A program made the translations under genes and the position numbers. The notes under the pieces were generated by a model. The model had not been told where the DNA came from. It saw only the letters and a list, made by a program, of their open reading frames with translations, and did not search any database. A stretch of 64,000 nt of DNA from Candidatus Woesebacteria bacterium (GTDB lineage: Bacteria > Patescibacteriota > Microgenomatia > UBA8517): contig CP058602.1 of the NCBI GenBank assembly GCA_013426185.1, positions 546,279-610,278 of the forward strand, given 5' to 3'. This document shows positions 8,983 through 50,462 of the stretch, piece after piece (within the stretch, counting starts at the first letter, position 1; each line of letters opens with the position of its first letter).

Positions 8983-8983
8983 C

Positions 8984-10139
8984 TTACTGGGGCAAAAACT
9001 CTTTCATATTGTCTGTTGTGATATGAAAAGAAGAGGTCTTGCCTTCAACCATCATTCTTGCCACCTTACGAACCACACCGTCAATTGTTCGCTCAAGCGT
9101 TCTAATACCAGCATCATAACCAAGAGGTCTAACAATAACAGGCCAGACATTATCATCTATAACAATGACACTAGGAGAAATACCTGCCGCCTTTAATTTT
9201 TCAGGCAAAACATATTTTGTTGCAATAGCAATCTTCTCACTATCAGTATAAGAAGGCATACTGATCGGCTCAAGCCTGTCCATTACCGCCGTTGCTATAT
9301 TATGAGTATTATTAGCGGTTGCAATAAAAAGTACTTGAGAAAGATCAATCGGGTAATCAATATAGTGATCAACAAAGGCAAAATTTTTGCTTTGGATCCA
9401 AAAGTTCTACCAAAACACCCATAATAGAACTTCTGCCTTCTTCAGTCACACGATCTATCTCATCAAGAAGAATCACAGGATTCATACTTTGAACCGAAAT
9501 CAAAGCCTTAACAATCTTTCCCGGTTCTGATTCAAGATGAAGCCTTGATTGACCCCTCAAATCAAGAGGATCTCCCATTCCACCAAAAGGAATTCTGGCA
9601 AATTTTCTTCCCAAAGCTTCAGCAATTGAGGGAGCAATAGTAGTTTTACCAGTACCAACAAGACCCACGAAAAAGAGAGTCGGTGCTTTTAAAACCTCGT
9701 TCTTTTCCCCTTTTTCAGCCTTAAGCTTCATCACCGACATATATTCAAGAACCCTGTTCTTGATATCTTCAAGCCCATAATGGTGACTATCCAAAATCTG
9801 ACGGGCGCGCTTTAGATCCAGTATATCTTCTGTGGTCTTATTCCACGGCACTTTTGTTACCCAATCAATATAGCGAGCAATGCGATCGTATTCATCAAGA
9901 TATGAAGGCGAATTGACCAATCTATTTAACTGGCCCAATCTAACGCTAATTCTGTCTTTAAGTTCTTGGGGAACAGAAGATGAATCAACTAAACTTTTAA
10001 GCCTCAAGAGTTCACTATCTGTAATTGGCAGGACTTCGTCTACTGTCTCTTTTGGAACGGAAAAGATCTGATTATTATCCTGATCATTATTAACAGGCTT
10101 CGGACTTTTAGTCACAGTATCACTTGAGAATAAACCCAT
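8984..10139 (-). pseudogene. Lon-like AAA+ module, frameshifted; it lacks both the N-terminal LON substrate domain and the C-terminal S16 protease domain.
   Basis: ORF 9369-10139 carries the LonA AAA core (VGLVGTGKTTIAPSIAEALGRKF...ILLDEIDRV...LLDPKQ) and stops. The Lon sequence continues in another frame (FAFVDHYIDYPIDLSQVLFIATANN...) and runs into ORF 8984-9283 (SYTDSEKIAIATKYV...RTLER). The frame break lies in an A4T5 run around 9379-9388. The protein ends exactly where the Lon protease domain would start. Confidence 0.55.
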
Positions 10140-24968: not shown

Positions 24969-24995
24969 CCACGGCCTAAAGGCCGTGGCTTTCTT
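24969..24995 (+). terminator. Hairpin terminator 1 after rpsT.
   Basis: The plus strand reads ccacggcc-taaa-ggccgtgg-ctttctt: an 8-bp GC-rich stem, a tetraloop and a T-rich tail. Confidence 0.6.
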
Positions 24996-25019
24996 GGCTC
25001 CATCTAAACTATTCTACAT

Positions 25020-25046
25020 CCACGCGCTAAAGCGCGTGGCTTTATG
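25020..25046 (+). terminator. Hairpin terminator 2 (same architecture, different stem sequence).
   Basis: The plus strand reads ccacgcgc-taaa-gcgcgtgg-ctttatg. It is flanked by a second, outer inverted repeat ctacatc / gatgtag. Confidence 0.55.
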
Positions 25047-25062
25047 ATTAGATGTAGTAAAA

Positions 25063-25089
25063 CCACAGCTTGAAAATTGTGGCTCTTTT
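25063..25089 (+). terminator. Hairpin terminator 3.
   Basis: The plus strand reads ccacagcttgaaaattgtgg-ctctttt. The stem CCACA/TGTGG carries a G-U pair and the T-tract is the best of the three. Confidence 0.55.
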
Positions 25090-25216
25090 GACTCCAACAA
25101 ACAATTCTTTTCCTACTTACTAAAGCACAATCCAAACTTGGCATTATATACTCCTTGTAAGAATATTTTCTCAATCAAATTTTTATGCTACTATTATAGT
25201 TAGTTTAAATAAGGAA

Positions 25217-25789
25217 ATGGCTGCCCTTAAAAAAGAAAAAGAAATCAATCTATTGCCCAAAGATAGTTTTTCCGAAACCAGTATAGGAAGAATTATCTTA
25301 TGGTTCCTTTCCACCTTCAGAATAATGGTTATTGTGGTTGAGCTGGTAGTTGTTGCCGCTTTTCTCTCTCGCTTCTGGCTTGACTCAAAAAATGCTGATT
25401 TAACAGACGAGATAAAGCAAAAGCAAGCTCAAATCAAAGCTTCCGAAGCCACTGAAAAACTATTTAGAGAACTACAAAAAAGAGTCTCTGCCTTTTCCAT
25501 CTTAACATCACAACCAAAATTATCTTCCTCAATCACCTCTATTTCCAGCCTAATGCCACCAACAATTACTCTAAATTCCATCGGTTTTTCTGAACAAGGA
25601 ATAACAATAATAGGCAATACACCCAATGAGCAAGAACTAGCTCAATTCCTAGTAAATCTCAAAAAGAGCGAAGATTTTACCAAAGTATCACTTTCTCAAA
25701 TAGGACCCGATCAGGATAATAAAGACATTTTGAAATTTACCATCAGTTTAAACATTAAAAACAAAACAGCACCCGAGACTAATCAATAA
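25217..25789 (+). CDS. Type IV pilus assembly protein PilN-like.
   Basis: The conserved N-terminal INLLP motif is present (KEINLLPKD). A single TM helix and a coiled-coil periplasmic region are present. The length is 190 aa. Confidence 0.6.
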   Translation: MAALKKEKEINLLPKDSFSETSIGRIILWFLSTFRIMVIVVELVVVAAFLSRFWLDSKNADLTDEIKQKQAQIKASEATEKLFRELQKRVSAFSILTSQPKLSSSITSISSLMPPTITLNSIGFSEQGITIIGNTPNEQELAQFLVNLKKSEDFTKVSLSQIGPDQDNKDILKFTISLNIKNKTAPETNQ

Positions 25790-25790
25790 A

Positions 25791-26519
25791 ATGGCAGTTA
25801 ACTGGAAAGAAAATTATCAAAGATACAAAAACCTTTTCTGGAAAAATTATGAATATTACAGAAAAAGGGAAGATATTAGAAACTATGTGGAACTGATTCT
25901 AAACCTGGTAGCTATCAGTGTCTTTAGCCTTTTTGCTATCAAGCCAACAGTAATTACCATCATTGATTTAAATAAACAAATCAAAGCCAAAGAAGAGACT
26001 ATCCAAAAGATGAATACTAAAATAAAAAACTTGCAGCAAGCTCAAAATCTCATAGACCAGGAAAGATCTTCCATTGATCTTCTTGATAAAGCAATCCCTA
26101 AAGAACCGCAAGCAGAAGAATTCATTCATTCTCTAGGAGGAATCGCAACCTTAAATAATCTAACAATCAAAAACATAGGCACAAAAAGTATCACCATCTT
26201 AGGAACATCTCAGGAAGTTAGTAAAAGTAATCTCAATCTGCCAGAGGGAACAAATATGGTTACCTTTTCTGCTTCATTTATAGGAAAATTCACAGATTTA
26301 GACGAATTTATCAAAAAACTGGAAAACTTTTTGAGGCCAGTTGATTTTAAGCAACTTTCTATCAATAAGCCACAAGAGAAAGAAGGAGAAAAAACAGAAG
26401 ATCTAAACTTGGGAATAACCATAGATGCACCCTATTACCAATTAATTAAGACCCAAAGCCAACCAAAGACCGCTAACCAAAGCCAGACAAAAAAAGAAGA
26501 AGTTATTCCTGAAAAATAA
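25791..26519 (+). CDS. Type IV pilus assembly protein PilO-like.
   Basis: The gene starts 2 nt after the pilN-like stop. It has an N-terminal TM helix, a coiled coil and a C-terminal alpha/beta region. The length is 242 aa. Confidence 0.5.
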   Translation: MAVNWKENYQRYKNLFWKNYEYYRKREDIRNYVELILNLVAISVFSLFAIKPTVITIIDLNKQIKAKEETIQKMNTKIKNLQQAQNLIDQERSSIDLLDKAIPKEPQAEEFIHSLGGIATLNNLTIKNIGTKSITILGTSQEVSKSNLNLPEGTNMVTFSASFIGKFTDLDEFIKKLENFLRPVDFKQLSINKPQEKEGEKTEDLNLGITIDAPYYQLIKTQSQPKTANQSQTKKEEVIPEK

Positions 26520-26522
26520 AAG

Positions 26523-26858
26523 ATGGAAAAAAACAAAAAGACACCCAGCTTAATATCTACATTAATCTTAACTACCATAACCTTGGTTAGTTGGGTGTTC
26601 TTTAGTATTTATCGAGCTTTTGTCAAACCACAACCAGTGGTTGTGCCTCCTGAAATCCTTGAACCAATTGATCTCAAACTAGATACCGTCTCTCTAAACA
26701 AGCTTAAAGAAAGATTTTATCTTAACGAAGAAGAAGTACCAGAAATTACTCCTCCACCAAAAACGGAGACTCCAAGGCCAACTCTATCACCAACAATCAC
26801 ACCTTCTCCCACGAACGAAGCAGTTCCTACCGCAACCCCCATTAATACCAATCAATAA
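26523..26858 (+). CDS. Small membrane-anchored protein with a Pro/Thr-rich tail (a PilP-like position in the operon).
   Basis: A TM helix LISTLILTTITLVSWVFFSIY is present. The C-terminus PPPKTETPRPTLSPTITPSPTNEAVPTATP is a PT-rich linker. Confidence 0.35.
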   Translation: MEKNKKTPSLISTLILTTITLVSWVFFSIYRAFVKPQPVVVPPEILEPIDLKLDTVSLNKLKERFYLNEEEVPEITPPPKTETPRPTLSPTITPSPTNEAVPTATPINTNQ

Positions 26859-26920
26859 ATTGAGGCTTGAAGAATCAAAAAAGTTTGCTAATCATAATCA
26901 AAAAAAGATAAAATGAAGAA

Positions 26921-28243
26921 ATGAGAAAGATTAGAATTCCCACATTAGTCGCAATTTTAATCCTTACTTTGGGATTATCTTTTTCTATAGTTTTAACCCA
27001 ACAAAAACAATTCTTTCTACCATCGGCAAAGTCTCAAAATATACCCAAAGACGTAAAAATTTCAAATATTACCGACTCCTCTTTCACTATCACCTGGCTT
27101 ACTCAAGATAAAGCAGATGGATTTGTTGTTTGGGGAAAGAGTAAATCTTTAGGTCAAACCACAAACGAAGAAACAAAAGCTAAAGGTTACACTCATTCTG
27201 CAACTATTACCAATCTTGAGCCAGAAACAACATATTACTTCAAAATAAATTCAGGTGGAGATCTTTATGATAATGATGGTTCGCCTTGGGAGACAAAAAC
27301 CGCTCCCAAACTTTCTTCCAGTGAAACACCAGCTATCCAAAATATCTCAGGTTTTATTGTTAATGCTCTAGGAGCACCTGCCACGTCTGCCTTAGTTTTT
27401 GTAAAAGCTGGGGGGTCAAATCTTCTCTCAACTTATACCTCAGAAAACGGAAATTGGATTATACCCCTTAATAAAATAAGAACAAGTGACTTGAATAATT
27501 CTTACAAAATCAACGGGCAAGATTTGCTTGAAATCAATGTGCAAGCAGGACCGGAAGGAATAGCCTCAGCTCAAATATATGCTGAGAAAGCAACAGCCAC
27601 TCCTCTTATCACTCTAGGTCAAACATATGATTTTAGAAATCTGACTACCAATCAAAACGATTCACTCCCCAAGTCAGAGATTCAAGGCCCTCAAGAAACA
27701 AACAAACAACCCAAATTTGACATTAGCGGATATAGCACGTCCTCTCCTTCAAGCACCGTCAGTATCGAAAGTATAAAAGAAGGCGAAACAATTAACACCA
27801 CCTCGCCCGAATTCTTTGGTAAAGGACCTGCCAGTAAGCAGATAACTATTACTGTAGAATCAGAAAATCCACAGACGGGCACTGTCTTAGTTGGCACAAA
27901 CGGCATCTGGCGATGGAGTCCTCCTTCTGGTCTTACTCCCGGCACCCACAAAATCACTTTGACATATCGTGATGACAATGGAGTTTTAAGAAGCATTGTC
28001 AGAACTTTTGTGGTTCAAGCAGCAGAAGCTGGAGAACCCGCCTTTGAGGCTACCCCTTCCGCCAGTCTAACACCTACTCCAACAAGTATAGTAGCAACAG
28101 CCACTCCCTCTGCTCAAAAAACTGCCTCTCCTTCCGCCACACCTGCTCAACCAATCTCTGGAGTTAAAGCCCCCACTTTAATTCTCTTTGGAACTGGCTT
28201 ATTATTATTTGTAGCTAGCGGCTTTCTACTTTTTGCAAACTAA
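26921..28243 (+). CDS. Cell-surface protein: signal peptide, FN3-like domain, beta-rich domains, PT-rich linker and C-terminal hydrophobic anchor.
   Basis: An N-terminal signal/TM segment is present. An FN3-like stretch runs SNITDSSFTITWLT...ETTYYFKINSGG. The C-terminus is TPSASLTPTPTSIVATATPS...APTLILFGTGLLLFVASGFLLFAN. Confidence 0.5.
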   Translation: MRKIRIPTLVAILILTLGLSFSIVLTQQKQFFLPSAKSQNIPKDVKISNITDSSFTITWLTQDKADGFVVWGKSKSLGQTTNEETKAKGYTHSATITNLEPETTYYFKINSGGDLYDNDGSPWETKTAPKLSSSETPAIQNISGFIVNALGAPATSALVFVKAGGSNLLSTYTSENGNWIIPLNKIRTSDLNNSYKINGQDLLEINVQAGPEGIASAQIYAEKATATPLITLGQTYDFRNLTTNQNDSLPKSEIQGPQETNKQPKFDISGYSTSSPSSTVSIESIKEGETINTTSPEFFGKGPASKQITITVESENPQTGTVLVGTNGIWRWSPPSGLTPGTHKITLTYRDDNGVLRSIVRTFVVQAAEAGEPAFEATPSASLTPTPTSIVATATPSAQKTASPSATPAQPISGVKAPTLILFGTGLLLFVASGFLLFAN

Positions 28244-28792
28244 ATGCTAAACATAGTGGGCAAAATTACTTTACTCTTCAGACAACAAGGAATTACTACC
28301 AGCCCCACCTCTGGAATTGCCGAGCAGTTAAATACCTACATCACGCTTAAGAGTAATGAGGGAGTCACCTACAAGATTGAAGGTATCAAGCCAGCTGTTG
28401 GTTCCTCTGGCATCTGGACCGCTAGTTTTTCCCAAGACAGTCAAGGCAGATTTATACCTGCTGGAACATACGACATACTAATCAAGGGAGTCTCCCACCT
28501 ACAAAAGAAGTTTACCGGCATACAAATAAGTGACAACCAACAGAACAAAATCGATAAAAGCACCAATACCAAAGACGAGCTCAAAGCAGGTGATATCAAC
28601 AATGACAACTCCATCACCACTGAAGACCTCTCAACCATCCTGAAGTTCTATACCGATTTCAAAGTACCAGTTAACAAAAACGACCTCACGATGACCCAAT
28701 CAGACATTAACAAAGACGGCTTTATAACTATTGACTATGTAGCGCTTGTGGCATTAAACTGGTCTGATTTTGTTGTAAAAGGAGACGAATAG
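28244..28792 (+). CDS. Dockerin-domain protein.
   Basis: Two canonical dockerin Ca-binding repeats are present, DINNDNSITTEDLSTILKF and DINKDGFITIDYVALVALNW, each matching D-x-N-x-D-(G)-x-I-T-x-x-D followed by a helix. Confidence 0.6.
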   Translation: MLNIVGKITLLFRQQGITTSPTSGIAEQLNTYITLKSNEGVTYKIEGIKPAVGSSGIWTASFSQDSQGRFIPAGTYDILIKGVSHLQKKFTGIQISDNQQNKIDKSTNTKDELKAGDINNDNSITTEDLSTILKFYTDFKVPVNKNDLTMTQSDINKDGFITIDYVALVALNWSDFVVKGDE

Positions 28793-28794
28793 TT

Positions 28795-29355
28795 ATGAAA
28801 AACAAAAGATACCTAGAAATTTTCATTCCAGGGATTTTGGTTATCGGGCTTGCTTCCATAATTATTACCCAAACCCTTAAGATTAAAAATATTGCTACCA
28901 CGAATCGAGTTACCAAAGAAAATATCCAAGAGGAAAAGGGGGGGGATATATCCCTAAAAGTCATCAAGGAAAATTCAAGAGTAATTGTTCAAATAGCACC
29001 AGTAGGAAAGACTGTTAACTTAAGAGCTTTTGCTCTAAAAATAAGTATGGAGACAAAAGGAGGCGTGCCTAAGGTAGGCACTCAAGACTTAACCACCCGA
29101 GAAATTCCAAATCACACATCCTGGTCATTCCCTATAAAGAAGTTAGAGACCAACAATGTTGGTTTAACTCTTAGCCTTTCTGGCTTTACTGTAGGTGATC
29201 CTCTTTCTCTTGACGGGTCTGTTCCCTTAGTGATTATTAACCTGCCCTCAAGTACGCCAGAGGATCTGTCTATAAAATCTGTTATGGTGGACAATGATTC
29301 AACTCGTTTTATTGGCAACTTTTCTGAAATCATTCCATACCAACTTGGTTGGTAG
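28795..29355 (+). CDS. Secreted or membrane-anchored beta-sandwich protein, possibly cohesin-like.
   Basis: An N-terminal TM/signal segment ILVIGLASIIITQTL is present. The stretch VIVQIAPVGKTVNLRAFALKISMETKGG resembles a cohesin strand pattern. The call is weak. Confidence 0.35.
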   Translation: MKNKRYLEIFIPGILVIGLASIIITQTLKIKNIATTNRVTKENIQEEKGGDISLKVIKENSRVIVQIAPVGKTVNLRAFALKISMETKGGVPKVGTQDLTTREIPNHTSWSFPIKKLETNNVGLTLSLSGFTVGDPLSLDGSVPLVIINLPSSTPEDLSIKSVMVDNDSTRFIGNFSEIIPYQLGW

Positions 29356-29375
29356 TCAATTGAAAGACAGTTAAA

Positions 29376-30218
29376 ATGCAACCTGAAACAACCGACGACA
29401 AGATTATAACCCAGTCTAAAAAAAATAGAAACAAGGCTATATTGATCACCGCTCTTGGGACCCTCCTTCTTGGAGCAGGCCTTGCGGTGGGAATTTTATT
29501 AGTCAAACAAAGTCAACAAATAAAAGAAAAGGCTGCTACCCCCACAGGAACTGTCAAGGTCTTCCTTTCTCCTGAGACTAATAGCGTCCAGGTCGGTCAG
29601 GTCTTCTCGGTCAATGTTTTACTTGACACAGATAGCAGATACATCTCTGCTCTAACCCTCGATCTTAGCTATCCTTATACGGGAGACACGCCCCCCATCG
29701 AAGCTACAGACATACAAGTAAGTTCAAATCTTATTGTTGGCGGCAATTGGAATTTCCCCATCAAAACCATAAACACCGATAACCAGTTAGTACAAATAAG
29801 AATCGGGGGGTTAAACAGCTCAAGCCAGGGCTACAAAACCACAGGCGAAGAGACGGTGGCTACTATTAACTTCAAAGCCCAAGCGGCAGGATCAATAAAC
29901 TTATCCTTCAATCCAACCACCACCAAAGCCACAGATAAAACAACAGGAGAAGATATCCTTTTAACTCCTTCAAGTTATGGCTCTTATACCGCCAGCGGCC
30001 AGACAACGACAGCGACTCCTGTGCCAACAGCTACAATAAACAACATGCCAACCACTACAACAAGCGCAACACCACACATTACAACAACCCCAATTCCCAT
30101 TGCAACTCCGACTCCATCACTAGTCCCAGTCCCCGAATCAGGCATATCTCTGCCTACAGTTATGGGTATTGGGGGAGGAGTCTTACTTCTAGTTATAGCC
30201 CTTTCCCTAACACTCTGA
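29376..30218 (+). CDS. Surface-anchored cohesin-like protein with a PT-rich linker and a C-terminal hydrophobic anchor.
   Basis: The stretch TGTVKVFLSPETNSVQVGQVFSVNVLLDTDSRYISALTLDLSYPY fits the cohesin pattern V.V..G..F.V.V.L.......I..LD..L.Y. The C-terminus is TTTPIPIATPTPSLVPVPESGISLPTVMGIGGGVLLLVIALSLTL. Confidence 0.4.
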   Translation: MQPETTDDKIITQSKKNRNKAILITALGTLLLGAGLAVGILLVKQSQQIKEKAATPTGTVKVFLSPETNSVQVGQVFSVNVLLDTDSRYISALTLDLSYPYTGDTPPIEATDIQVSSNLIVGGNWNFPIKTINTDNQLVQIRIGGLNSSSQGYKTTGEETVATINFKAQAAGSINLSFNPTTTKATDKTTGEDILLTPSSYGSYTASGQTTTATPVPTATINNMPTTTTSATPHITTTPIPIATPTPSLVPVPESGISLPTVMGIGGGVLLLVIALSLTL

Positions 30219-30219
30219 C

Positions 30220-32688
30220 CTAACGCCAAGAATCAAACCAGTAGTAAGAATCATCAAGTGATCTTAGAACCGGAAAACCAATTAAATGTGGATAAAAATA
30301 AAGAAAGATAACCAAAGAAAAAGCCAAAAAAGGTAAAAAGAGCTTCATATTCTTTCTTAGAATAAAGCCAATAGATATTGCCAAAAAAGGAAGAGAGGGC
30401 AAATAATGGTAAAAAAACATAATTCTTGGCGAGACAGCCCAAGGCACAAAAAAGACAAGATAAGAAAAAACAACCCAAGATAACTTCTTGTTTCTTAGGA
30501 TATAGGCATAATATAACGTCGAAAAAACTGAAAACAAGCCAAACCAAAAAACGAGAGGATTACCAAAAGCATAGATATTGGCTACTTTACCACCGGCAAA
30601 GGAATTGGTATAAAGCCACATGGGCCTCAACAAAAGAGGCCAACTCCACCAGCTTGAAGTATAAGGATGAGTAGCTTTAAGTCCTGTGTGATACCACCAC
30701 ATCTGTTTTTGAACACCAATAAAGATATCAAAATTATGCCCTGTCAAAAACATCTGAGTGTAGCTTGCAATGTAGACCAATGGTGGTAAAACCAAAAACC
30801 AAAGGTAAGAGGCTTTGAGTTTCTTACCAAAAGCGAAAAACGCTGAAAAAAGAATTGGCACCACCCAAACTGCGCTCCACTTGGAAGAAAGAGCAAGGCC
30901 AAAAGCAAGACTTGAAAAAAACAACTTATCTTTCAAAAAAAGATAGATTGCCAAAAGAGAAAAAAAGACAAAATAAATATCATTCATTCCAATTCTACTC
31001 ATAACAAGAAATAGTCCATCCAGGCTTAAAGCCAAAGCTGAAAATAAAGCCGCTATCTTGTCATCAAAAATTTCTTTGGCAATAAGATAAACCAAAAAAA
31101 TTGAAAGCGTCCCAAGCAAAGCCGCCGGAGCCCGCCAACCAAAAGAATTCTCACCAAAAACAAACATCCCTAGTTGCATTCCTATCTTTGCTAAAGGCGG
31201 ATGTGACCATTCATAGGCATAACCTTCAGGATGTGGATTCCACCACTCCCAAGCTTTAGGCTCACCATGCATCATCAAGCGAGCAGTAAAAGCATGATAG
31301 ACTTCATCAAAATATTCTCTTTGCGGGTTTCCTAGATAAAAAAGCCTGCTTACAAAAGAGAATAGCAAAATAAAAGATATAAAAATATTGATCGTCCTTT
31401 TAGAAATTTCAACTTTATTAAAAAGTTTCCTAAAGCCATTTCTTGACCTTGGCATCTTTTTAATCTTTTCAAGCCAAAAAAACAAACTTTCCCTCTTTTT
31501 TGAAAAGAGATCTTTAACCCAGAAGATAAAAAGTGATAATTCAAGAAAAATAATTGCTTTAATTAAAAACGGAGAGAAAACTTCTCTGAAATCTTGGGTG
31601 ATCCAAATAAAAGAATAATAAAGATTAAGGCAGTAAATAAAAGAAAAAAGAACATAAACTAAGAAAAGATTGGAGTAGATTGAAGCTGAGATAAGAAGTG
31701 GGGCAAAAACAGGCAAAAGATGTCTCTCATGCATTCTAGGAAAAAAAAGAAAAGACACACCAAATACTAAAGCCAAGATCAAATACTCGCCACCCTTTGT
31801 CTTCTTAAACTTCAAAAAAGAAAAGAAGGAAACAAGAAAAAGAATAAGAAAGGCAAACAAAGAAGGAAAGATGTTTAAATCAGGCTTCCAAAAACCAAAA
31901 AGTCCCCAAAAGTTGAAAGCGTTAACTGAAGTATAAGGATATTGCCCCAAAGTCTGCTTTATTCTTTCTATTACAAAAACTGAGAATTCATTAAGAGTCT
32001 TACCAAACGGTAAGAAAGGCAAAAAACTAATAACAAAAACCGAAAAAGAGGTTAAAACATAAAAAACGAATTTACGAAAAGGAACTTTCTTTTGCCAAAA
32101 TAGAAACAAAAGTGGAATCACAGTCAGGGCTGCCTGAATCTTGACAGCCGTTCCAATAGAAAGGAAAATAGCCGAAAGATAAAGATCGCGGCTAAAAAAA
32201 TATAAAGAAAGAAGAGAAAAAAGAATAGTCAAGGAATCAACCTGCCCCCACAAAGAAGAATTGGCAAAAATGGCAGGGTTAAAAACATAAAAAATCAGGG
32301 CCCAAAAGGCGATCTTCTCACCTTTAAGACCTCTGATTATTTTGTAAAGCAAAAAACCTGAAATTAAATCGGCTAAAATAGCAGGCAATTTATAAAGAAT
32401 CTCGTTTGGAAAAAATGGCAAAGCATTTTTAATTTTGCCCAAGATAAAAAGGAAATAAAGATAACCCGGCAGGTAATCAGACCAAGCCTTGTAGAAATCG
32501 GGAAAGGGCAAATTAATCAGTCTCTGACTCCAGGCTACAAAAGTATTAAAATCAATCTCCAACGTCCCAAAAAATGACAAACAAAGCCTAAAAAATAAAG
32601 CAACAAAAAGAATCATAAAGACTTTACTCCTTGTGATTCTTGACCAAAAATTGGTCAAAAAAGAATAACTGTTAGAACGCGTTTTCAT
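30220..32688 (-). CDS. Large GT-C-fold membrane glycosyltransferase (PMT/ArnT-like, GT39/GT83 type), apparently a fusion of two polytopic modules.
   Basis: The 822-aa protein has more than 20 predicted TM helices. The second half carries DEVYHAFTARLMMHGEPKAWEWWNPHPEGYAYEWSHPPLAKIGMQLGMFVFGENSFGWR, typical of dolichyl/undecaprenyl-phosphate-sugar-dependent PMT-like transferases. Confidence 0.65.
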   Translation of the reverse strand: MKTRSNSYSFLTNFWSRITRSKVFMILFVALFFRLCLSFFGTLEIDFNTFVAWSQRLINLPFPDFYKAWSDYLPGYLYFLFILGKIKNALPFFPNEILYKLPAILADLISGFLLYKIIRGLKGEKIAFWALIFYVFNPAIFANSSLWGQVDSLTILFSLLSLYFFSRDLYLSAIFLSIGTAVKIQAALTVIPLLFLFWQKKVPFRKFVFYVLTSFSVFVISFLPFLPFGKTLNEFSVFVIERIKQTLGQYPYTSVNAFNFWGLFGFWKPDLNIFPSLFAFLILFLVSFFSFLKFKKTKGGEYLILALVFGVSFLFFPRMHERHLLPVFAPLLISASIYSNLFLVYVLFSFIYCLNLYYSFIWITQDFREVFSPFLIKAIIFLELSLFIFWVKDLFSKKRESLFFWLEKIKKMPRSRNGFRKLFNKVEISKRTINIFISFILLFSFVSRLFYLGNPQREYFDEVYHAFTARLMMHGEPKAWEWWNPHPEGYAYEWSHPPLAKIGMQLGMFVFGENSFGWRAPAALLGTLSIFLVYLIAKEIFDDKIAALFSALALSLDGLFLVMSRIGMNDIYFVFFSLLAIYLFLKDKLFFSSLAFGLALSSKWSAVWVVPILFSAFFAFGKKLKASYLWFLVLPPLVYIASYTQMFLTGHNFDIFIGVQKQMWWYHTGLKATHPYTSSWWSWPLLLRPMWLYTNSFAGGKVANIYAFGNPLVFWFGLFSVFSTLYYAYILRNKKLSWVVFSYLVFFVPWAVSPRIMFFYHYLPSLPFLAISIGFILRKNMKLFLPFLAFSLVIFLYFYPHLIGFPVLRSLDDSYYWFDSWR

Positions 32689-32762: not shown

Positions 32763-33914
32763 GTGAGAACAGAAACTAAAATATCCATTCTTATTTTTCT
32801 TGCTTTTTTGTTAATCTATTTTTTATCTTCCTCGGGAAAAATGCCTTACGATTATTTTCTAAGACTGGCTAATGCTTTTCTAAAAGGTAAATATTACCTT
32901 GAAGAAAATCCTCCCTGGCTTTCAGAATTAATACCTCAAGGTGAAAATAAATTTTTTGTTGTTCACCCACCAATGCCCGCTGTCCTTCTTGCTCCATTTG
33001 TTCTTATCTTTAAAGAAAGATTTGAGCAACAATATTTAGCTCATATTCTGGGGGCTTTAATTCCAGTTGTTGTCTTTAATCTTGCTCTTAAAATTAAAAA
33101 GGATTTAAAACTTGCTCTTTGGTCTTCAATTATCTCAGGAGCAGGAAATATAATTTGGTTTCTTTCCTCGGTCGGCTCTTCTTGGTACTTGGGACAAATC
33201 ACAGCTTGTCTTTTCTTAACCATCTCTATCAAAAATCTCATCTCCACCAAAGACGCCTTGAAAACAGGAGTATTTTTGGGAGCAGCATATCTTTCAAGGG
33301 TAAACATTCTTGTTTCTTTGCCATTCTTCCTACTAGGAATGGGGTCAAAAACAAAAAAAGATTACCTCAAGCTCCTCTTAGGTTTTCTTCCCTTTTTTGC
33401 TTTTAACAGTTTCTATAACTTTATCCGCTACAACACTATCTTTGATGTTGGCTATGCAAAAATTCCTGGCATATTTGATGAGCCTTGGTACCAAAAGGGC
33501 CTTGTTAACATTACCTATATTCCATCTCATCTAAAAATATTTCTTCTAGGACTACCTAAGATCAAGGATTCTTTCCCTTACATAATTCCCACCTGGGCAG
33601 GAATGGCAATTTGGCTAACAACTCCAGCTTTTATTTTCTCTTTTTTTGCACCTCTAAAAGAAAAATTAGTAAAACTAGCGTGGCTTTCCATTTTTCTTAT
33701 TTCCCTTATCATCTTTAGCCACGGCAGTACAGGATTCACTCAATTTGGCTACCGTTTTGCGGTTGATTTTTATCCCTTCCTCTTTTTTCTAACCATAAAG
33801 GGGGTCGCAAAAACAAAATTAAAAAAGATACATTGGTTGCTACTTATTATCTCGATTATAGTTAACCTGTGGGGTGTTTTGTGGATCAATAAATTCCAAT
33901 GGGTAAGTTTCTGA
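32763..33914 (+). CDS. Polytopic membrane protein, putative GT-C-type glycosyltransferase.
   Basis: The 383-aa protein has about 10 TM helices. It lies between two GT-C genes. No catalytic motif could be pinned down. Confidence 0.35.
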   Translation: MRTETKISILIFLAFLLIYFLSSSGKMPYDYFLRLANAFLKGKYYLEENPPWLSELIPQGENKFFVVHPPMPAVLLAPFVLIFKERFEQQYLAHILGALIPVVVFNLALKIKKDLKLALWSSIISGAGNIIWFLSSVGSSWYLGQITACLFLTISIKNLISTKDALKTGVFLGAAYLSRVNILVSLPFFLLGMGSKTKKDYLKLLLGFLPFFAFNSFYNFIRYNTIFDVGYAKIPGIFDEPWYQKGLVNITYIPSHLKIFLLGLPKIKDSFPYIIPTWAGMAIWLTTPAFIFSFFAPLKEKLVKLAWLSIFLISLIIFSHGSTGFTQFGYRFAVDFYPFLFFLTIKGVAKTKLKKIHWLLLIISIIVNLWGVLWINKFQWVSF

Positions 33915-35326
33915 AAAAATATTTCTCTCTAATACCAGCTATTTATCTTGCAATAATTTACCTAAAAACTCTTTTACCTGATGTTGGTTTTTGGGATACT
34001 GGGGAATTTCAGACTATTGGTTATACTTTTGATATCTCGCACCCGACAGGCTATCCGCTTTATATTATCTTACTTAAAATATTCACCTCCTTTTTGCCTA
34101 TCGGCAACATTGCCTATCGAGCCAATCTTCTCTCAGCACTTCTTTCTATTTTCGCCATATATTTTGTCTCAAAAACCATTTTTATTATTACCAAAAATAT
34201 CGCTCTCTCACTTTTTGTTCCCATTATTCTTGGCACAAACCCCTTCCTTTGGTCAACCTCGACAAGAGCCGATCCACACACGCTTCACTTCTTTTTTGTC
34301 TCACTTTTCATCTATATTCAAAGCTTAATAATAATCAAAAAGAAACATAAAATGCTTTACCTTCTATCTCTTGTTTTCGGCCTCTCCCTTACTAATCATC
34401 TGCTATCAATTTTTATCTTGCCTACCTTTATCTTAACTTTACTGCTTATTAAAATTCCTCTTAAGAAAAAGGTGATAACTAACGCTTTAGTTTTTATTCC
34501 TCTTTTGATTTATCTTATTATTCCAACTATTTATCACTTCAAAGGAGCCTACACCATAGACTACAATCTTAAAAATCCTCACAACTTTGTAAGATATATT
34601 TTGGGGCAGGATTTTTCACCTCAGTCAAGCTTCAAAATCAGCAAGGACCTTTTTGTCAATTTAGCTAATGGAGTCAAGCTACTTGAGAAAAATATGGGCC
34701 GTTTTTTATTTTTGACCTCAATTTTTGGACTAGTTGTCTTTGTCATCAAAGAAAAACTTGCCTTGGCGCTTCCCCCTCTTTTTCTCTTGAATCTATTCTT
34801 TTCAGCAAATTATCAAAACGCGGTAATAGAAAGATATTTCCTAACCAATCTGCTTTTACTTTTTCTCTCAACAGCGTATCTTCTCAACATATTTCTTAGA
34901 AATCTAGAACTAATCATTAGAAATAAAACAGGCAAATTCAAATTTACAAATCTCGGACTAAATTTTTTGATCGCCCTTCTATTAATTGCTCCTATCAGAG
35001 ACAACATTTTGAAAAACTACAAGAACATAAACCAAAGTAAAAACTATCACGCAAGAAACTGGGCTACTTCAACTTTGAACAGTCTTGAACCAAACGCTGT
35101 TATCTTCTCATGGTGGAGCTATTCCACTCCACTTTGGTATTTACAAAAGGTTGAAAAGACAAGACCAGATGTTCTTGTTATTAATGATGGCCAGAACAAT
35201 TGGGAAGAAAAAGCAAAATATTACTTAGGAAAAAGGCCTGTTTATTTTATAGAAAAGATAAAACTCAAAGATGAGAATTTAACACTAATAAACAAAGGGT
35301 CTGTTTTTAAACTTGAAGAAAATTAA
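33899..35326 (+). CDS. DUF2723/TMEM260-like GT-C membrane glycosyltransferase.
   Basis: The N-terminal motif DVGFWDTGEFQTIGYTFDISHPTGYPLYIIL resembles the DUF2723 (TMEM260 O-mannosyltransferase family) signature D[ST]GEF. The 475-aa protein is polytopic. Confidence 0.55.
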   Translation: MGKFLKKYFSLIPAIYLAIIYLKTLLPDVGFWDTGEFQTIGYTFDISHPTGYPLYIILLKIFTSFLPIGNIAYRANLLSALLSIFAIYFVSKTIFIITKNIALSLFVPIILGTNPFLWSTSTRADPHTLHFFFVSLFIYIQSLIIIKKKHKMLYLLSLVFGLSLTNHLLSIFILPTFILTLLLIKIPLKKKVITNALVFIPLLIYLIIPTIYHFKGAYTIDYNLKNPHNFVRYILGQDFSPQSSFKISKDLFVNLANGVKLLEKNMGRFLFLTSIFGLVVFVIKEKLALALPPLFLLNLFFSANYQNAVIERYFLTNLLLLFLSTAYLLNIFLRNLELIIRNKTGKFKFTNLGLNFLIALLLIAPIRDNILKNYKNINQSKNYHARNWATSTLNSLEPNAVIFSWWSYSTPLWYLQKVEKTRPDVLVINDGQNNWEEKAKYYLGKRPVYFIEKIKLKDENLTLINKGSVFKLEEN

Positions 35327-36426
35327 TTTCTCAAAAAACCATCTACCCACTTATAAACCTCTTCAAAATTAACTTCTTTGGGAACAAACACATAAAGATT
35401 GTCATATTTTGAGGATTTCAAAGGGACAATAAACAAATCCTTGGGTAAGACCTCGTTTTTGATATTGCTCCTTGCTGCCAAGAACTGTCTAGATAAGGCT
35501 ACCATTGTCCTTGTGTCAATATCAGTCTCAACATACTTAAAAACCAAATTGGCAAGGTTCTTTACCTTATCAAAAGAAGACCAAAATTCCCTTTTTTGAA
35601 GCGAGTTGATAATTGCTTTTATCACCAACTGCTGCCTTTTTGCTCGAGCAAGATCATTCCCCTCATCGCCTTGGGCTTTACGAGAGCGAACAAACTTTAA
35701 AGCAGTCTCACCATCCATCTTTTGCCACCCTTTTTCAAATCGAACTGTTTCATAACGGCACTTAAAAAGCGGGTCGCCATTACAATTATCATTTTCTCGA
35801 CCTGCTATCGGATACCATTCGTCAACAAAAGGCTCTTCAACATAAACATCAATACCGCCCAAGCTATCAATAACCTCTTTAAACAAAGAAAAATCAACCA
35901 CCAAAGCGTAATGAACAGGCTCACCTGTTACTTCTTCAACCACCGCTTTTGATAAGACCAATCCTCCTCCCACCTCTTTTTTATTGCCCCAATAATAGAC
36001 ACTATTTAATTTAGCCCTTAAAGGCTCGATCCAGATGTCACGAGGTAAGGAAATTAAATAAATTCCAGGTTTTTGTTCTTTATCTTTCAATTTTAAAGAA
36101 ACAAAAATCATAGTATCTGTCAAGTCAGGTGCTTCATGCCCCGCCCCTCCTTTACCCAAGATTAAAAAGTTAACTCTTGTGCCAGTTGATCTAAAATCAG
36201 AAGTTGAAGAAAAAGCAAAAGCACGAAATAGATCAAGGTAATAATGAACTCTTGTATTTTGGATAAGCTTTATAAGACCAAAGACCAAGATAAAAAACAA
36301 AACCAAAATGGAAGAAAAAATGACCCCTCTTACAAACCAGACATTTTTAAAAATTTTCCTTCTGATTTTTAAAACACTAGCTCTTAACTTCAAAATCCGC
36401 CTTGATATTTTTTTTTCCTTTGCCAT
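35323..36426 (-). CDS. LytR-CpsA-Psr (LCP) family cell-wall glycopolymer phosphotransferase.
   Basis: An N-terminal TM anchor is present. The LCP core is FLILGKGGAGHEAPDLTDTMIFVSLKL...IYLISLPRD, with DTM and SLPRD motifs. Confidence 0.75.
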   Translation of the reverse strand: MAKEKKISRRILKLRASVLKIRRKIFKNVWFVRGVIFSSILVLFFILVFGLIKLIQNTRVHYYLDLFRAFAFSSTSDFRSTGTRVNFLILGKGGAGHEAPDLTDTMIFVSLKLKDKEQKPGIYLISLPRDIWIEPLRAKLNSVYYWGNKKEVGGGLVLSKAVVEEVTGEPVHYALVVDFSLFKEVIDSLGGIDVYVEEPFVDEWYPIAGRENDNCNGDPLFKCRYETVRFEKGWQKMDGETALKFVRSRKAQGDEGNDLARAKRQQLVIKAIINSLQKREFWSSFDKVKNLANLVFKYVETDIDTRTMVALSRQFLAARSNIKNEVLPKDLFIVPLKSSKYDNLYVFVPKEVNFEEVYKWVDGFLRN

Positions 36427-38350: not shown

Positions 38351-39331
38351 ATGACAAAAAAGGATGCACAGAATTTTAATCTTAAAGTAGATCATCCTCT
38401 TCAAAGCTGGGAATGGGGAGAGTTTAGAAAAGAATGGGGAAATAAAGTTGTAAGAAAAGAAAACTACCAGATAATCTTTAGTAAAATTCCCAAGACCAGC
38501 TTTACAATTGGGACTTTAATTCGTGGCGGGATGCCAAGTGCAAGCGTGCTTAGTGATATAAAGAAAATTGCAAGAGAAAATAAAGCTATTTTTATAAAAC
38601 TTGAGCCAAATATTACCTATGAAGAAAAAGAAAAAGCAAAAAAAGCAGAATCAATACTCAAAAAAGAAGGTTGCGTCAATGGAAAACGCCTTTTTACACC
38701 CGAATCTTTTTGGATAGATTTGACAAAAAGCGAGGAAGAGCTCTTTTCATCATTTCACCCAAAAACAAGATATAACATCCGTTATGCCCAAAGAAAGGGT
38801 GTAACAGTTGAAGAAGACAACTCAGACGCTGCTTTTGAAAAATATCTCAAACTTACCTTTGAAACAGCTAAAAGACAAAATTTTTATGCCCACACTCCGC
38901 TTTATCACAAACTTATGTGGAGACATCTTTATCTTTTACCCAAAAAAGAAGGGAGAGAGCCTGTTGCTCATTTACTTGTTGCCAAATACAGAAAAAAAAT
39001 AATCGTAGCCTGGATTGTTTTTGCCTTCAAAGACTTTCTTTACTACCCTTACGGCGCTTCAGATTACAGATATCACAAACTAATGGCAAGCAATTTAATG
39101 ATGTGGGAAGCAATTAGATTTGGAAAAAAGTTAGGTCTTAAAACCTTTGACCTCTGGGGCAAAGAAGAAGGCAAAGGCTTCACTCGCTTTAAAGAAGGTT
39201 ATAACCCCAAGGTGGTTAAATTCATAGGTAGCTATGATTTAATCATCAATAAGCCCTTTTATCGTATTTATTCTCTAGCAGATAAACTAAGATGGATAAT
39301 CTTAAAAAAGATTCTGCCAATTCTTAGATGA
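38351..39331 (+). CDS. FemAB-family peptidoglycan aminoacyltransferase-like protein (paralog 1).
   Basis: The FemX-like N-terminus is HPLQSWEWGEFRKEWGNKVVR. The C-terminal lobe is IVAWIVFAFKDFLYYPYGASDYRYHKLMASNLMMWEAIRFGKKLGLKTFDLWG, comparable to the FemX YAGS...YAPY...W...DLGG region. Confidence 0.55.
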   Translation: MTKKDAQNFNLKVDHPLQSWEWGEFRKEWGNKVVRKENYQIIFSKIPKTSFTIGTLIRGGMPSASVLSDIKKIARENKAIFIKLEPNITYEEKEKAKKAESILKKEGCVNGKRLFTPESFWIDLTKSEEELFSSFHPKTRYNIRYAQRKGVTVEEDNSDAAFEKYLKLTFETAKRQNFYAHTPLYHKLMWRHLYLLPKKEGREPVAHLLVAKYRKKIIVAWIVFAFKDFLYYPYGASDYRYHKLMASNLMMWEAIRFGKKLGLKTFDLWGKEEGKGFTRFKEGYNPKVVKFIGSYDLIINKPFYRIYSLADKLRWIILKKILPILR

Positions 39332-40149
39332 ATGATATCAGGCAAGACCAAACTTACGCTTTTTACCTTTCAAGGCTTGGCTGGAAGATAAAAAAACAAA
39401 AAAATGTCTACTATTTTATTCGCAAGATTCTACCTTTTTTGCAAATAACTAAAGTTCAACGGCCTGAAACTCTTGACACATCCTTTCTTAAAAAAATTAT
39501 CCTGGAGGAGAAAATAACAATTACCATAGTTGAGCCCAAAGATGAAAGACAAGCTGAAATTCTCAAAAAATTAAACTTCAGGCAAATAAAACCTTATCTA
39601 CCCTCAAAAACTTTGGTAATTGATCTTTCGCAAAAGCTTGAAACAATACTAAAAAAGACGAAAAAAGACTGTCGTCTTTCAATCAAAAAAACAAAAAACA
39701 TCAAAATCAAAAAATGTCAAAGAAAAGACTTGGCAGAATTTTATTCTCTTTGGAAAAAATCAGTTGGCTTCAAAAGGTATGTACCTCCTTTTAATCAAAT
39801 TAAAAACTTGTCACAAATTTTTAAAGAAAACGCCCTGTTTTTGCTTTATAAGGATAGTCAAGGAGCAGCGTCTGGCGCTATTTTTTTAAAAAATAAGTGG
39901 AACGCCTACTACTGGCAAGCCTTTACCAACAAAAAAGCAAGAGAAAAATTAATTCAATATCAAATTGTCTGGCAGGGAGTTCTCTGGGCCAAAAAGAACA
40001 AATGTCTCAACTTTGATTTTGAAGGCGTTTTTGATCCCCGCTTTCCTGACAAAAAATGGCTTGGCTTCTCACACTTCAAGAAAAGTTTTGGTGGAGAAGA
40101 AATCACCTATCCCGGAGCGTTTTTTAAAATCAATTTAAACTTTTGGTGA
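39328..40149 (+). CDS. FemAB-family protein (paralog 2, 4-nt overlap with paralog 1).
   Basis: YAFYLSRLGWKIKKQKNVYYF and LFLLYKDSQGAASGAIFLKNKWNAYYWQAFTNKKAREKLIQYQIVWQGVLWAKKNKCLNFDFEGV follow the FemAB fold pattern. Confidence 0.5.
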   Translation: MNDIRQDQTYAFYLSRLGWKIKKQKNVYYFIRKILPFLQITKVQRPETLDTSFLKKIILEEKITITIVEPKDERQAEILKKLNFRQIKPYLPSKTLVIDLSQKLETILKKTKKDCRLSIKKTKNIKIKKCQRKDLAEFYSLWKKSVGFKRYVPPFNQIKNLSQIFKENALFLLYKDSQGAASGAIFLKNKWNAYYWQAFTNKKAREKLIQYQIVWQGVLWAKKNKCLNFDFEGVFDPRFPDKKWLGFSHFKKSFGGEEITYPGAFFKINLNFW

Positions 40150-49094: not shown

Positions 49095-50462
49095 ATGCTC
49101 AATCAATTTAATACCAGTCTGTGGGGAGATGAAGCTTTCTCGGCTGTTCTTTCCAAAAATCAGCCTCTTGAAATTATAAAAATAATCATTCGCGACACCT
49201 CGCCCCCCTTATACAACCTAACTCTTCACTTTTGGTATCAAATCTTCGGCATCAGCGAAGTCTCAATTAGAGCTTTATCTTTCACTTACTTTGTTATCAC
49301 TATATTTTTTGTCTATCTAATAGCAAAACTACTTTGGGGAAAAAAGACAGGAATTATCTCAGCTATTTTAACTTTCCTAAATCCATTTTTCTTCACCTAT
49401 GCTTTTGAGGGGAGAATGTATTCAATACTTGCTCTTGGAGTCACCTCATCAACTTACTTTTTCTTAAAGTTAATTAAAAGGGAGGAGAAAAAGAAAAAGG
49501 AGTCGTCTTTGGCTCTTGTTGTTGCTTATGCTCTTTCTGTTGATTGGGCTTTGTACTCTCACCACTTTGCCATTTTTGCTGTTTTTCTACAAGCTTTGTG
49601 GATGATATTTGAATTCTTGTTTGGCAATAGGGCCGGCGCTAAAAAAGTTTTCCGAGGCCTTGTTATTGCTGCAATTTTATATTTACCATGGGTTTATCCT
49701 CTTTACCTTCAGACCAAAATGGTAACAGGAGGTTTCTGGCTAGGGAAACCTACCTTAATTGATTTAAGAAATTTAATTTATGAGTACCTGGCTGAAGGAA
49801 TTAAAAATCCAGTTATCAAATTAACCTTTGTCAATAAGACTCTGGGACAAATTGCCCTTTATCTAATTTTTGCTATTCTCATTTTAAGAAAATGGCATAA
49901 AGAGATTAAAAAGAGCTTTTTTATTCTTAGCTTTTTTATTTTCCCTATTATCATCACTTGGGTCATCTCCCAAAAAATGCAATCTATTTTCTTTAACCGC
50001 TACCTTCTCTATACCATTCCTGCTGCTATGATTCTTGTGTCTTCAAACAGAAGAAAAATCTCAACTGCCATAATTATTGCTGTTATTATCCTTTTTGGCA
50101 TCATCGACTATAACTACTTTTTTCACCCCACCAAAAAACCTTTTTCTGAACTTGCAAATTATGTCAAAGAAACTAAAACTAAAGACAACTTTCTTATCAA
50201 TTGGAATTCATCAGCTCATCATCTTTGGGAAAGTAAATTCTATGGCCTTGAAGCACCTATTTACAACCCATCAGAAAGCTTGCCTTACTATGTAGGCACC
50301 GCTCAAATGACAAAAGATGATGTTATCAAAGAAATACCAAATGCTAAAAGAATAGGAGTTATCACAAGCGGAAGCGAGGATGAGATAAAAATTAAAAACT
50401 ACTCAATTGACGAAGTCAAAAAGTTTGGCGAATTGAAAGTTGTTTGGCTCAAGAAAAAATGA
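49095..50462 (+). CDS. GT-C membrane glycosyltransferase (ArnT/PMT_2-like, polyprenyl-phosphate-sugar dependent).
   Basis: The 455-aa polytopic protein has WGDEAFSAVL in its first extracytoplasmic loop, positioned like the ArnT DE motif. Confidence 0.55.
   Translation: MLNQFNTSLWGDEAFSAVLSKNQPLEIIKIIIRDTSPPLYNLTLHFWYQIFGISEVSIRALSFTYFVITIFFVYLIAKLLWGKKTGIISAILTFLNPFFFTYAFEGRMYSILALGVTSSTYFFLKLIKREEKKKKESSLALVVAYALSVDWALYSHHFAIFAVFLQALWMIFEFLFGNRAGAKKVFRGLVIAAILYLPWVYPLYLQTKMVTGGFWLGKPTLIDLRNLIYEYLAEGIKNPVIKLTFVNKTLGQIALYLIFAILILRKWHKEIKKSFFILSFFIFPIIITWVISQKMQSIFFNRYLLYTIPAAMILVSSNRRKISTAIIIAVIILFGIIDYNYFFHPTKKPFSELANYVKETKTKDNFLINWNSSAHHLWESKFYGLEAPIYNPSESLPYYVGTAQMTKDDVIKEIPNAKRIGVITSGSEDEIKIKNYSIDEVKKFGELKVVWLKKK

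Follow-up and report, generated by a model that had tools for sequence, protein, structure and literature searches.

A candidate cohesin-dockerin surface-tethering module in an apparent PilN/PilO-containing operon of Candidatus Woesebacteria

We analysed a 64-kb window, the whole of a 64,000-nucleotide stretch of contig CP058602.1 (positions 546,279 to 610,278) from Candidatus Woesebacteria Ch104c, and within it three adjacent + strand genes that we refer to as p5, p6 and p7. The genome is a closed 0.83-Mb member of the candidate phyla radiation (CPR) and originates from a 2.8-km-deep aquifer (PMC7509429), in agreement with an earlier note, made from the letters of the window, that had described the organism as CPR-like. 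That note had also proposed that p5 ends in a dockerin and that the two open reading frames (ORFs) behind it carry cohesin-like domains, and all three ORFs were found where it had placed them, p5 at 28244..28792 (182 amino acids, aa), p6 at 28795..29355 (186 aa) and p7 at 29376..30218 (280 aa). They close a run of seven + strand ORFs (25217-30218) that begins with genes for PilN and PilO and continues with two membrane-anchored proteins, p3 and p4. Together p5, p6 and p7 make up the candidate surface-tethering module that is the subject of this report.

p7, which is 100% identical to a protein of Ch104c, has the layout of a stalked cohesin protein. A transmembrane (TM) helix with a QSQQIKEKA motif (residues ~22-53) is followed by the cohesin domain (residues 58-208; 29547-29999), a stalk rich in proline and threonine (PT; residues 209-250), a P253-ESGISLP-T261 motif (30132-30158) and a C-terminal TM helix (residues 262-280); the PT-rich stalk and the C-terminal hydrophobic anchor that had been described for this ORF are both present. 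Searches of p6 and p7 against PDB sequences, with single sequences and with profile hidden Markov models (HMMs), returned nothing significant, and the identifications relied on comparing folds and on a deeper profile of the family. The AlphaFold2 model of p7, built on a 19-sequence alignment, contains a β-sandwich core at residues 58-208 with a predicted local distance difference test score (pLDDT) above 90, and long helices at residues 18-53 and 259-279. When this model was compared with the PDB using Foldseek the top 50 matches were all cohesins (50/50; E 3e-10 to 8e-6, target-normalised TM-score up to 0.78), and the list runs from CaCohA2 (3e-10) through the non-cellulosomal cohesin of A. 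fulgidus (2xdh, rank 7, 9e-9) to OlpA/OlpC, CipA and ScaB/ScaC/ScaE. The core of p7 is predicted by the model to be a nine-stranded β-sandwich (jelly-roll) with the cohesin fold. Pfam Cohesin (PF00963) matches 8 of the 19 p7 family members at E < 0.1 (best 2.9e-5), and the p7 family is a divergent cohesin subfamily.

Related loci were fetched and are labelled L001 and so on, and 65 of them were searched with HMMs built from the p5, p6 and p7 families; a related-locus search with a trimmed p7 alignment led to six species-level loci. Two loci with p7-type cohesin proteins, L011 and L013 (CAYSEQ010000006.1 and CAZLDC010000053.1), are labelled 'uncultured Gammaproteobacteria' and carry Patescibacteria-type N- and C-terminal motifs; these bins are probably mis-assigned.

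The shorter protein p6 is held by an N-terminal TM anchor, is preceded by a strong Shine-Dalgarno sequence (AAAGGAG) and has no match in Pfam. A profile of nine p6-type sequences could be aligned to the p7 family along the full length of the domain (HHalign 98.7%, E 3.9e-16, 182 columns; 95.8% in an earlier alignment), and a W-x-F-P-I-K motif is common to p6 and p7. By profile alignment p6 is a paralog of p7 with a divergent cohesin-like domain at residues ~54-186 (28954-29352). The proposal of a cohesin-like pair at 28795 and 29376 has therefore held up, p7 by its fold and p6 by its alignment with the p7 family, and the outcome that would have left the dockerin an orphan, no cohesin fold in either protein, did not arise given the fold of p7.

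The ATG of p5 abuts the stop codon of p4, and its dockerin module lies at residues ~115-176 (28586..28771). We took a dockerin to comprise two duplicated segments of ~22 residues in which a helix comes after a 12-residue calcium loop of the EF-hand-like type (Asp or Asn at positions 1, 3 and 5, Asp or Glu at position 12). Loop 1 of p5 (D117-D128; 28592-28627) is of the EF-hand type and fits this pattern, with a T118I change in the window copy. Loop 2 (D154-Y165; 28703-28738) has a tyrosine at position 12, where all five aligned relatives have aspartate (D165Y), so that of the two textbook dockerin segments claimed by the earlier note the first stands and the second is not textbook. Several orthologs of p5 exceed the gathering score of Pfam Dockerin_1 (PF00404), namely P0023 (27.8 bits), L008 (23.8), L044 (28.3) and L026 (28.4). 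A phmmer search of 1.84 billion representative proteins for p5 gave 310 clusters at E <= 1e-3; in nearly all of them the match lies at the extreme C-terminus. From 92 of these clusters we built a family profile, whose first member is 95% identical to the window copy of p5, and 44 of the 92 representatives match Dockerin_1 at E <= 1e-4. Single-sequence and profile HMM searches with p5 itself gave weak dockerin or EF-hand matches in the PDB and no others. The 92-member profile matched 3kcp_A (1.7e-14) and 2b59_B (1.4e-13), which are CipA chains, as well as 4wi0_B (2.9e-13) and 4u3s_B (8.8e-13), deposited as 'Cellulosomal scaffoldin', and these alignments span the X module (a β-module) plus the dockerin. 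Since the family profile matches both modules of chains with an X-module and a type II dockerin, the p5 tail is, as tested on that profile, such a dyad (X-Doc hereafter) and more than a dockerin alone.

In this strain p5 has no signal peptide because of an in-frame deletion of 252 bp (84 codons). Compared with L016, which has the closest full-length allele, the junction lies at 28253..28254 on the + strand, between ATGCTAAACA and TAGTGGGC, and apart from this clean gap the two agree at 99.6% identity over the region. Aligning the window with L005 and L016 shows that the deletion takes out the signal anchor and the PT linker. In the relatives the N-terminus is a hydrophobic signal anchor (MI[S/N]RK..LKIFLILALLVGTTAGIVL), followed by Q-x-R-Q-D-I-R-E-R-A and then the PT linker; the N-terminus of the window p5, MLNIVGKITLLF, has no hydrophobic stretch that could serve as a signal peptide or anchor. 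We ruled out an assembly artefact, since L015, an independent metagenome contig, carries the identical junction and allele. Longer p5 proteins occur in strains whose p5 is 95-97% identical in the shared part, with 266 aa in L016 and 322 aa in L005 and L006, and a Cys-rich module is present or absent among them. Across the clade of the window the heads of p5 are Cys-rich and variable in length, giving proteins of 182, 266, 322, 381, 418 and 515-528 aa, the 515-528 aa alleles being ~74% identical in the shared part. Against L016, p6 and p7 differ by 0 and 2 amino acids, and the p6 and p7 cohesin receptors appear intact in this genome. The counts of nonsynonymous and synonymous changes in p5 (4 and 2, against 0 and 1 for p6 and 2 and 0 for p7) are too few to show relaxed selection with significance. 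From the loss of the signal anchor and linker together with that of a conserved calcium ligand, p5 in this strain is most likely a remnant in decay that is no longer exported, and dockerin-cohesin display is probably disabled here.

Upstream of p5 the earlier note had named pilN and pilO genes and an anchored protein with an FN3 domain at 26921, and each of these was recovered. PilN (25217..25789, 190 aa) matches PF05137 with 42.9 bits against a gathering score of 22.8 (E 4.9e-11) and has an INLLP motif at its N-terminus, read directly from the sequence; PilO (25791..26519, 242 aa) matches PF04350 with 28.7 bits against 22 (E 1.6e-6). p3 (26523..26858, 111 aa) is a small bitopic protein, a TM helix with a PT-rich tail, which has no Pfam match and in related loci is always found after PilO. 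p4 (26921..28243, 440 aa) is an anchored surface protein in which a signal or TM helix is followed by FN3/Pur_ac_phosph_N, a CarboxypepD_reg-like domain, Big_13, a PT linker, a C-terminal motif and a TM helix (E-values of 6.5e-9 for fn3, 3e-12 for Pur_ac_phosph_N and 2e-9 for Big_13), and its FN3 domain was matched in the PDB too. Intergenic gaps from PilN to p7 are 0-62 bp, and no + strand terminator was found inside 25217-30218. Just 5' of pilN there are promoter-like matches to the sigma-70 consensus (25138..25197, +), by consensus match alone, and two terminator-like G+C-rich hairpins lie after rpsT, the gene for ribosomal protein S20, at the upstream edge of the cassette (24969..25039, +). 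On account of the tight packing, the hairpins and promoter-like sites between rpsT and pilN and the lack of an internal + strand terminator, PilN-PilO-p3-p4-p5-p6-p7 looks like one operon. In all, three similar hairpins stand in tandem after rpsT at 24969-25082 (CCACGGCC..GGCCGTGG, CCACGCGC..GCGCGTGG and CCACAGC..TTGTGG), a cluster that might terminate transcription in both directions or form a small repeat element. In the pilMNOPQ operons of diderm bacteria PilP and PilQ are placed after PilO. p3, which is small, Pro-rich and membrane-anchored, and p4, which is large and has several β-domains, follow PilN-PilO in the PilP-PilQ order and have no sequence similarity to these proteins; they might be functional counterparts of PilP and PilQ specific to monoderms or to the CPR.

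The anchored proteins share features at both ends. p4, p7 and their orthologs have in common the C-terminal motif x-P-x-S/T-G-x3-P-T, which stands before a TM helix, mostly with no basic tail behind; in p4 the motif reads P411-ISGVKAP-T419 (28151-28177, +). The tail regions (28151-28243 in p4 and 30132-30215 in p7) recur in all related loci. Neither LPXTG_anchor nor the other sorting-signal models of NCBIfam matched the C-terminal tails or the N-terminal motif, the best E being 0.92, for one ortholog, and no sortase or exosortase gene lies within the 64-kb window. By motif, by basic tail and by the absence of a sortase gene from the window, p4 and p7 do not qualify as sortase (LPXTG) substrates. 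A search for a shared sorting motif and for sortase, archaeosortase or exosortase genes had been suggested, and it gave a common motif, with no sortase or exosortase gene in the window and no known model that fits. Because the motif is LPXTG-like in form but fits no known sorting model, wall anchoring of p4 and p7 is speculative. At the other end, many surface proteins of this lineage carry a TM helix and, behind it, L-[VT]-x-Q-x-Q-x-I-[RK]-E-[KR]-A, as seen in the window at 29376-29540 (p7) and at L005:5030-5140, L008:5367-5530 and 8888-9260, and L009:8891-9000. This signature is unlike a classical AXA signal-peptidase site and has no NCBIfam model match; it may serve this lineage as a signal of its own for export or processing.

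The order MurJ(-), S20, PilN, PilO, p3, p4, [p5, p6], p7, ..., PMT(-), where PMT denotes the protein O-mannosyltransferase family, is kept in L001, L004-6, L008, L009, L017, L023, L025, L026 and L028, and PilN-PilO-p3-p4 is still present in the more distant L012 and L014. The triad sits inside the PilN-PilO-p3-p4 cassette in one Woesebacteria-like clade only, so the linkage to pilNO that had drawn attention to this locus is a real adjacency that does not extend beyond that clade. The full triad, comprising an X-Doc gene, a short N-anchored cohesin and a stalked cohesin, also occurs without nearby PilN/PilO in L010, L037, L044, L060 and L027. The 65 fetched loci hold 66 X-Doc genes, which form 44 clusters at 95% nucleotide identity, and 40 non-redundant clusters with at least 700 bp of downstream sequence entered a census of adjacency. 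A cohesin-like domain begins 92-219 bp past the dockerin end in 22 of these 40, and with so short a distance the cohesin sits in the next gene. L065 adds to the 22, its next gene encoding a two-cohesin protein that the HMM missed and that we spotted by eye. Just 3 of 18 next-gene proteins match PF00963, these cohesins being mostly invisible to Pfam. Tandem dockerin-cohesin arrays were observed in L046, L047 and L056, and in L010 (Cohesin 30.1 bits), L037, L038, L047 and L056 a cohesin and an X-Doc occur in one chain, in the manner of an adaptor scaffoldin. In L047:6275-7062, and also in L045 and L046, an array cohesin gene is broken by an in-frame stop into ORFs of 82 aa and 180 aa, which we take as another sign of quick gain and loss of function in dockerin-cohesin modules.

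The heads joined to the tail are diverse. Among the 92 representatives we observed Peptidase_S8 (8), Cohesin (8) and Glyco_hydro_cc (3), single cases of the glycoside hydrolase families GH5, GH42 and GH99, of peptidases C1 and M23, of the carbohydrate-binding modules (CBMs) CBM_11 and CBM_4_9 and of a β-helix, and many heads with no Pfam domain. Because the tail is joined to subtilases, glycosidases, other peptidases, cohesins and Cys-rich heads alike, it looks like a general docking tag that is not specific to cellulose, and this range points to the tethering of hydrolases or adaptors as much as to adhesion; the host attachment that the earlier note had suggested in place of cellulosome assembly is a conjecture.

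Taken together we favour, with moderate confidence, the reading that p5, p6 and p7 form a conserved three-gene cohesin-dockerin surface-tethering module in what looks like a PilN/PilO-containing operon, of which the window carries a probable remnant of p5 and an apparently intact p6 and p7. In the relatives p5 would be exported by way of its N-terminal signal anchor, and its X-Doc would plug non-covalently, in a calcium-dependent manner, into the cohesin of p6, of p7 or of both. p6 would present one cohesin, fixed to the membrane through its N-terminal TM helix, and p7 a single cohesin on a PT-rich stalk ending in an LPXTG-like motif and a TM helix. Docking would then tether the head of p5 at the cell surface; these heads are Cys-rich and hypervariable in this clade and, in the wider Patescibacteria, subtilases, glycosidases, other peptidases, CBMs or further cohesins. 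We infer the dockerin-cohesin pairing and the choice of partner, export and cleavage, wall anchoring and the pilus link, with calcium-dependent docking and surface display suggested by analogy with the X-Doc/cohesin pairs of cellulosomes. The small display or adhesion scaffold proposed in the earlier note is borne out in its gene order, both by the 22 of 40 clusters and by the triads outside a PilN/PilO setting, whereas the display itself is probably off in this strain, with its deleted signal anchor and D165Y.

Several observations weigh against this reading. The window p5 reaches 21.0 bits (E 4e-4) against Dockerin_1, below the gathering score of 22.9, p7 reaches 19.2 bits (E 1.5e-3) against Cohesin, below 24.1, and the AlphaFold2 model of p5, made from a two-sequence alignment, was unusable (pLDDT 44.6). 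For 18 of the 40 dockerin genes no cohesin neighbour was detected; the exceptions are mostly weak dockerin-only matches, with one CBM-headed subfamily in which the next gene is an unrelated enzyme. L002 keeps the cassette with p7 and without p5 and p6, which argues that p7 has a role independent of this dockerin. Mean identity is 73% for the dockerin, 64% for p7 and 38% for p6, and because p6 evolves so much faster than the other two the cognate cohesin is ambiguous. Adjacency favours p6, and the similar slow evolution of dockerin and p7 favours p7, a comparison that is confounded by phylogeny. A mirror-tree style comparison of rates (r 0.91 for dockerin and p7, 0.83 for dockerin and p6) was discarded as a test of partnership for the same confounding, and does not identify the partner. 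The case for p5 binding to p6 or p7 is inferred from gene neighbourhood, and p5, though truncated, may still be made as a protein with some other role.

The same genes could instead belong to a pilus-associated envelope complex, in which p3, p4 and p7, and p6 too, would be structural accessories of the PilN/PilO alignment subcomplex, for example a wall-spanning collar or attachment organelle, with the cohesin fold acting as a generic β-sandwich and the dockerin protein being a later, dispensable insertion. The tight PilN-PilO-p3-p4-p7 cassette kept in the Woesebacteria-like clade, L002 included, the persistence of PilN-PilO-p3-p4 in L012 and L014, and the placing of p3 and p4 like PilP and PilQ in the diderm operon as generally known all agree with such a complex. 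We nevertheless regard it as rather unlikely, because pilin, PilM, PilB, PilC and PilT genes are absent from the 64-kb window, the triad occurs apart from PilN/PilO in L010, L037, L044 and L060, and synteny by itself is no proof of a physical link. It is also conceivable, if improbable, that the PilN/PilO-linked cassette (p3, p4 and p7 with an exchangeable p5 and p6) builds a pilus-associated attachment organelle on which the cohesin-dockerin joint lets the cell exchange hypervariable Cys-rich heads, these heads deciding which partner or host is recognised, and that the strain-level p5 indels, under diversifying selection, turn the system on or off and change its specificity.

A miniature polysaccharide-degrading cellulosome would have dockerin-tagged glycoside hydrolases, encoded elsewhere in the genome, that dock on p6 and p7 and break down glycans of plants or microbes. 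This appears improbable at the present locus, where the dockerin protein, in the window and across its clade, has no enzyme head but only Cys-rich modules or a bare linker, where no further dockerin or cohesin beyond p5-p7 occurs in the 64-kb window, and where the cohesins are single, with no multi-cohesin scaffoldin. Relatives of the tail do include heads of the Glyco_hydro_cc (three), GH5, GH42, GH99, CBM_11 and CBM_4_9 types, and 'cellulosome' components have been reported in Cand. Shapirobacterales and, by citation, in Roizmanbacterium (PMC9123182); glycosidases do not outnumber proteases among the heads. Last, the domain resemblance may be true and the proteins nonetheless unrelated surface neighbours, the cohesin-like ones binding targets other than dockerins. 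The sub-threshold Pfam scores in the window and the degenerate p5 of this strain would suit such a view, and there are, to our knowledge, many non-cellulosomal cohesin and dockerin modules that have no known partner. We think it very unlikely all the same, since the dockerin-cohesin order recurs in highly divergent loci, tandem arrays among them, and the tail is homologous at the profile level to X-Doc dyads, whose sole known role is to bind cohesins.

The proposed cohesin-dockerin tethering module would work much as the anchoring end of a cellulosome does, where the X-Doc II of CipA docks into cohesins of the SdbA/OlpB type, or the X-Doc of R. flavefaciens into ScaE. The closest likeness for p5 is the pairing of C. 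thermocellum CipA XDocII with a type II cohesin (2b59, 3kcp), which shares with it a C-terminal β-module followed by a two-loop dockerin (profile-level homology, E 1.7e-14) and, presumably, the role of attaching a secreted protein to a single cohesin on the cell. The cargo here differs, being a small Cys-rich head, or in this strain none, in place of a multi-cohesin scaffoldin; the cohesins are on TM helices and a PT stalk instead of SLH domains, the organism belongs to the CPR, and the system is known here from its genes. In its fold p7 is also slightly closer to type I than to type II cohesins. p7 resembles R. flavefaciens ScaE, the receptor for the X-Doc of CttA/ScaB (2zf9, 4iu2), in having a signal, one cohesin, a Thr/Pro-rich linker, a C-terminal sorting-type motif and a hydrophobic helix; the partner bears an X-Doc in both, and ScaE cohesin structures are among the fold matches of p7. 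ScaE has a canonical LPXTG sortase signal, whereas p7 has x-P-x-S/T-G-x3-P-T, usually without a basic tail, in a window with no sortase gene. The locus is not itself a cellulosome, because it holds no multi-cohesin scaffoldin and no enzymes but one head-less dockerin protein. Non-cellulosomal cohesins and dockerins in general have long been known, and the A. fulgidus cohesin (2xdh) is, like the present modules, from an organism without a classical cellulosome. With respect to pilMNOPQ operons, PilN and PilO pass Pfam and PilN keeps INLLP, whereas PilM, PilP, PilQ, pilin and the ATPase are not adjacent and anchored surface proteins follow PilO instead.

The genes that flank the cassette are housekeeping genes together with several glycosyltransferases of the GT-C/PMT family, one LytR-CpsA-Psr gene and two FemAB genes. 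A GT-C gene of the PMT family (30220..32688, -), convergent to p7, keeps its position in related loci. Such genes, protein O-mannosyltransferase-like and TMEM260-like, are unusually dense in the window (30220-32688(-), 32763-33914, 33899-35326, 49095-50462 and 50444-51949), and the first three directly border the surface-protein cassette in a placement kept in relatives. As neighbours with a conserved position, the PMT-family enzymes may act on the PT-rich stalks of p3, p4, p5 and p7 by O-glycosylation. The LytR-CpsA-Psr ligase gene (35323-36426(-)) and the adjacent FemAB-family genes (38351-39331 and 39328-40149) represent wall functions of the Gram-positive type, wall-polymer attachment and peptide cross-bridges respectively, and bear on the possible wall anchoring of surface proteins. 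Two small envelope-type proteins were also observed, at 3931-4554(-) a fusion of HTH_25 (RodZ-like) with a Glucodextran_B/Big_6 β-domain and at 54403-55218(-) a protein with PEGA and SH3_3.

Cohesin and dockerin domains have been reported in the Microgenomates lineage of the CPR (Cand. Shapirobacterales) at the level of annotation or expression and taken as cellulosome parts, and the same source cites cellulosome components in Roizmanbacterium (PMC9123182). In Southlakia (Saccharibacteria) a dockerin protein is essential (PMC10633639). These precedents are domain annotations or a single protein and not a gene triad. In the literature we found no account of the three-gene module, of strain-level variation in its heads, of the breadth of its cargo, of Pfam-invisible cohesins or of its embedding with PilN/PilO.

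CPR bacteria are believed to need physical contact with other cells, and the organisation of their surfaces is largely obscure. The recurring dockerin-cohesin-cohesin module offers a concrete candidate mechanism for the non-covalent display of proteases, glycosidases and binding heads in Patescibacteria. The strain-level variation of the heads, together with a natural allele that lacks its signal, provides a ready comparison for function, and the X-Doc/cohesin pair could serve as a small orthogonal part for protein assembly. It is possible that the 'cellulosome' annotations in Microgenomates may read better as a general surface-tethering system.

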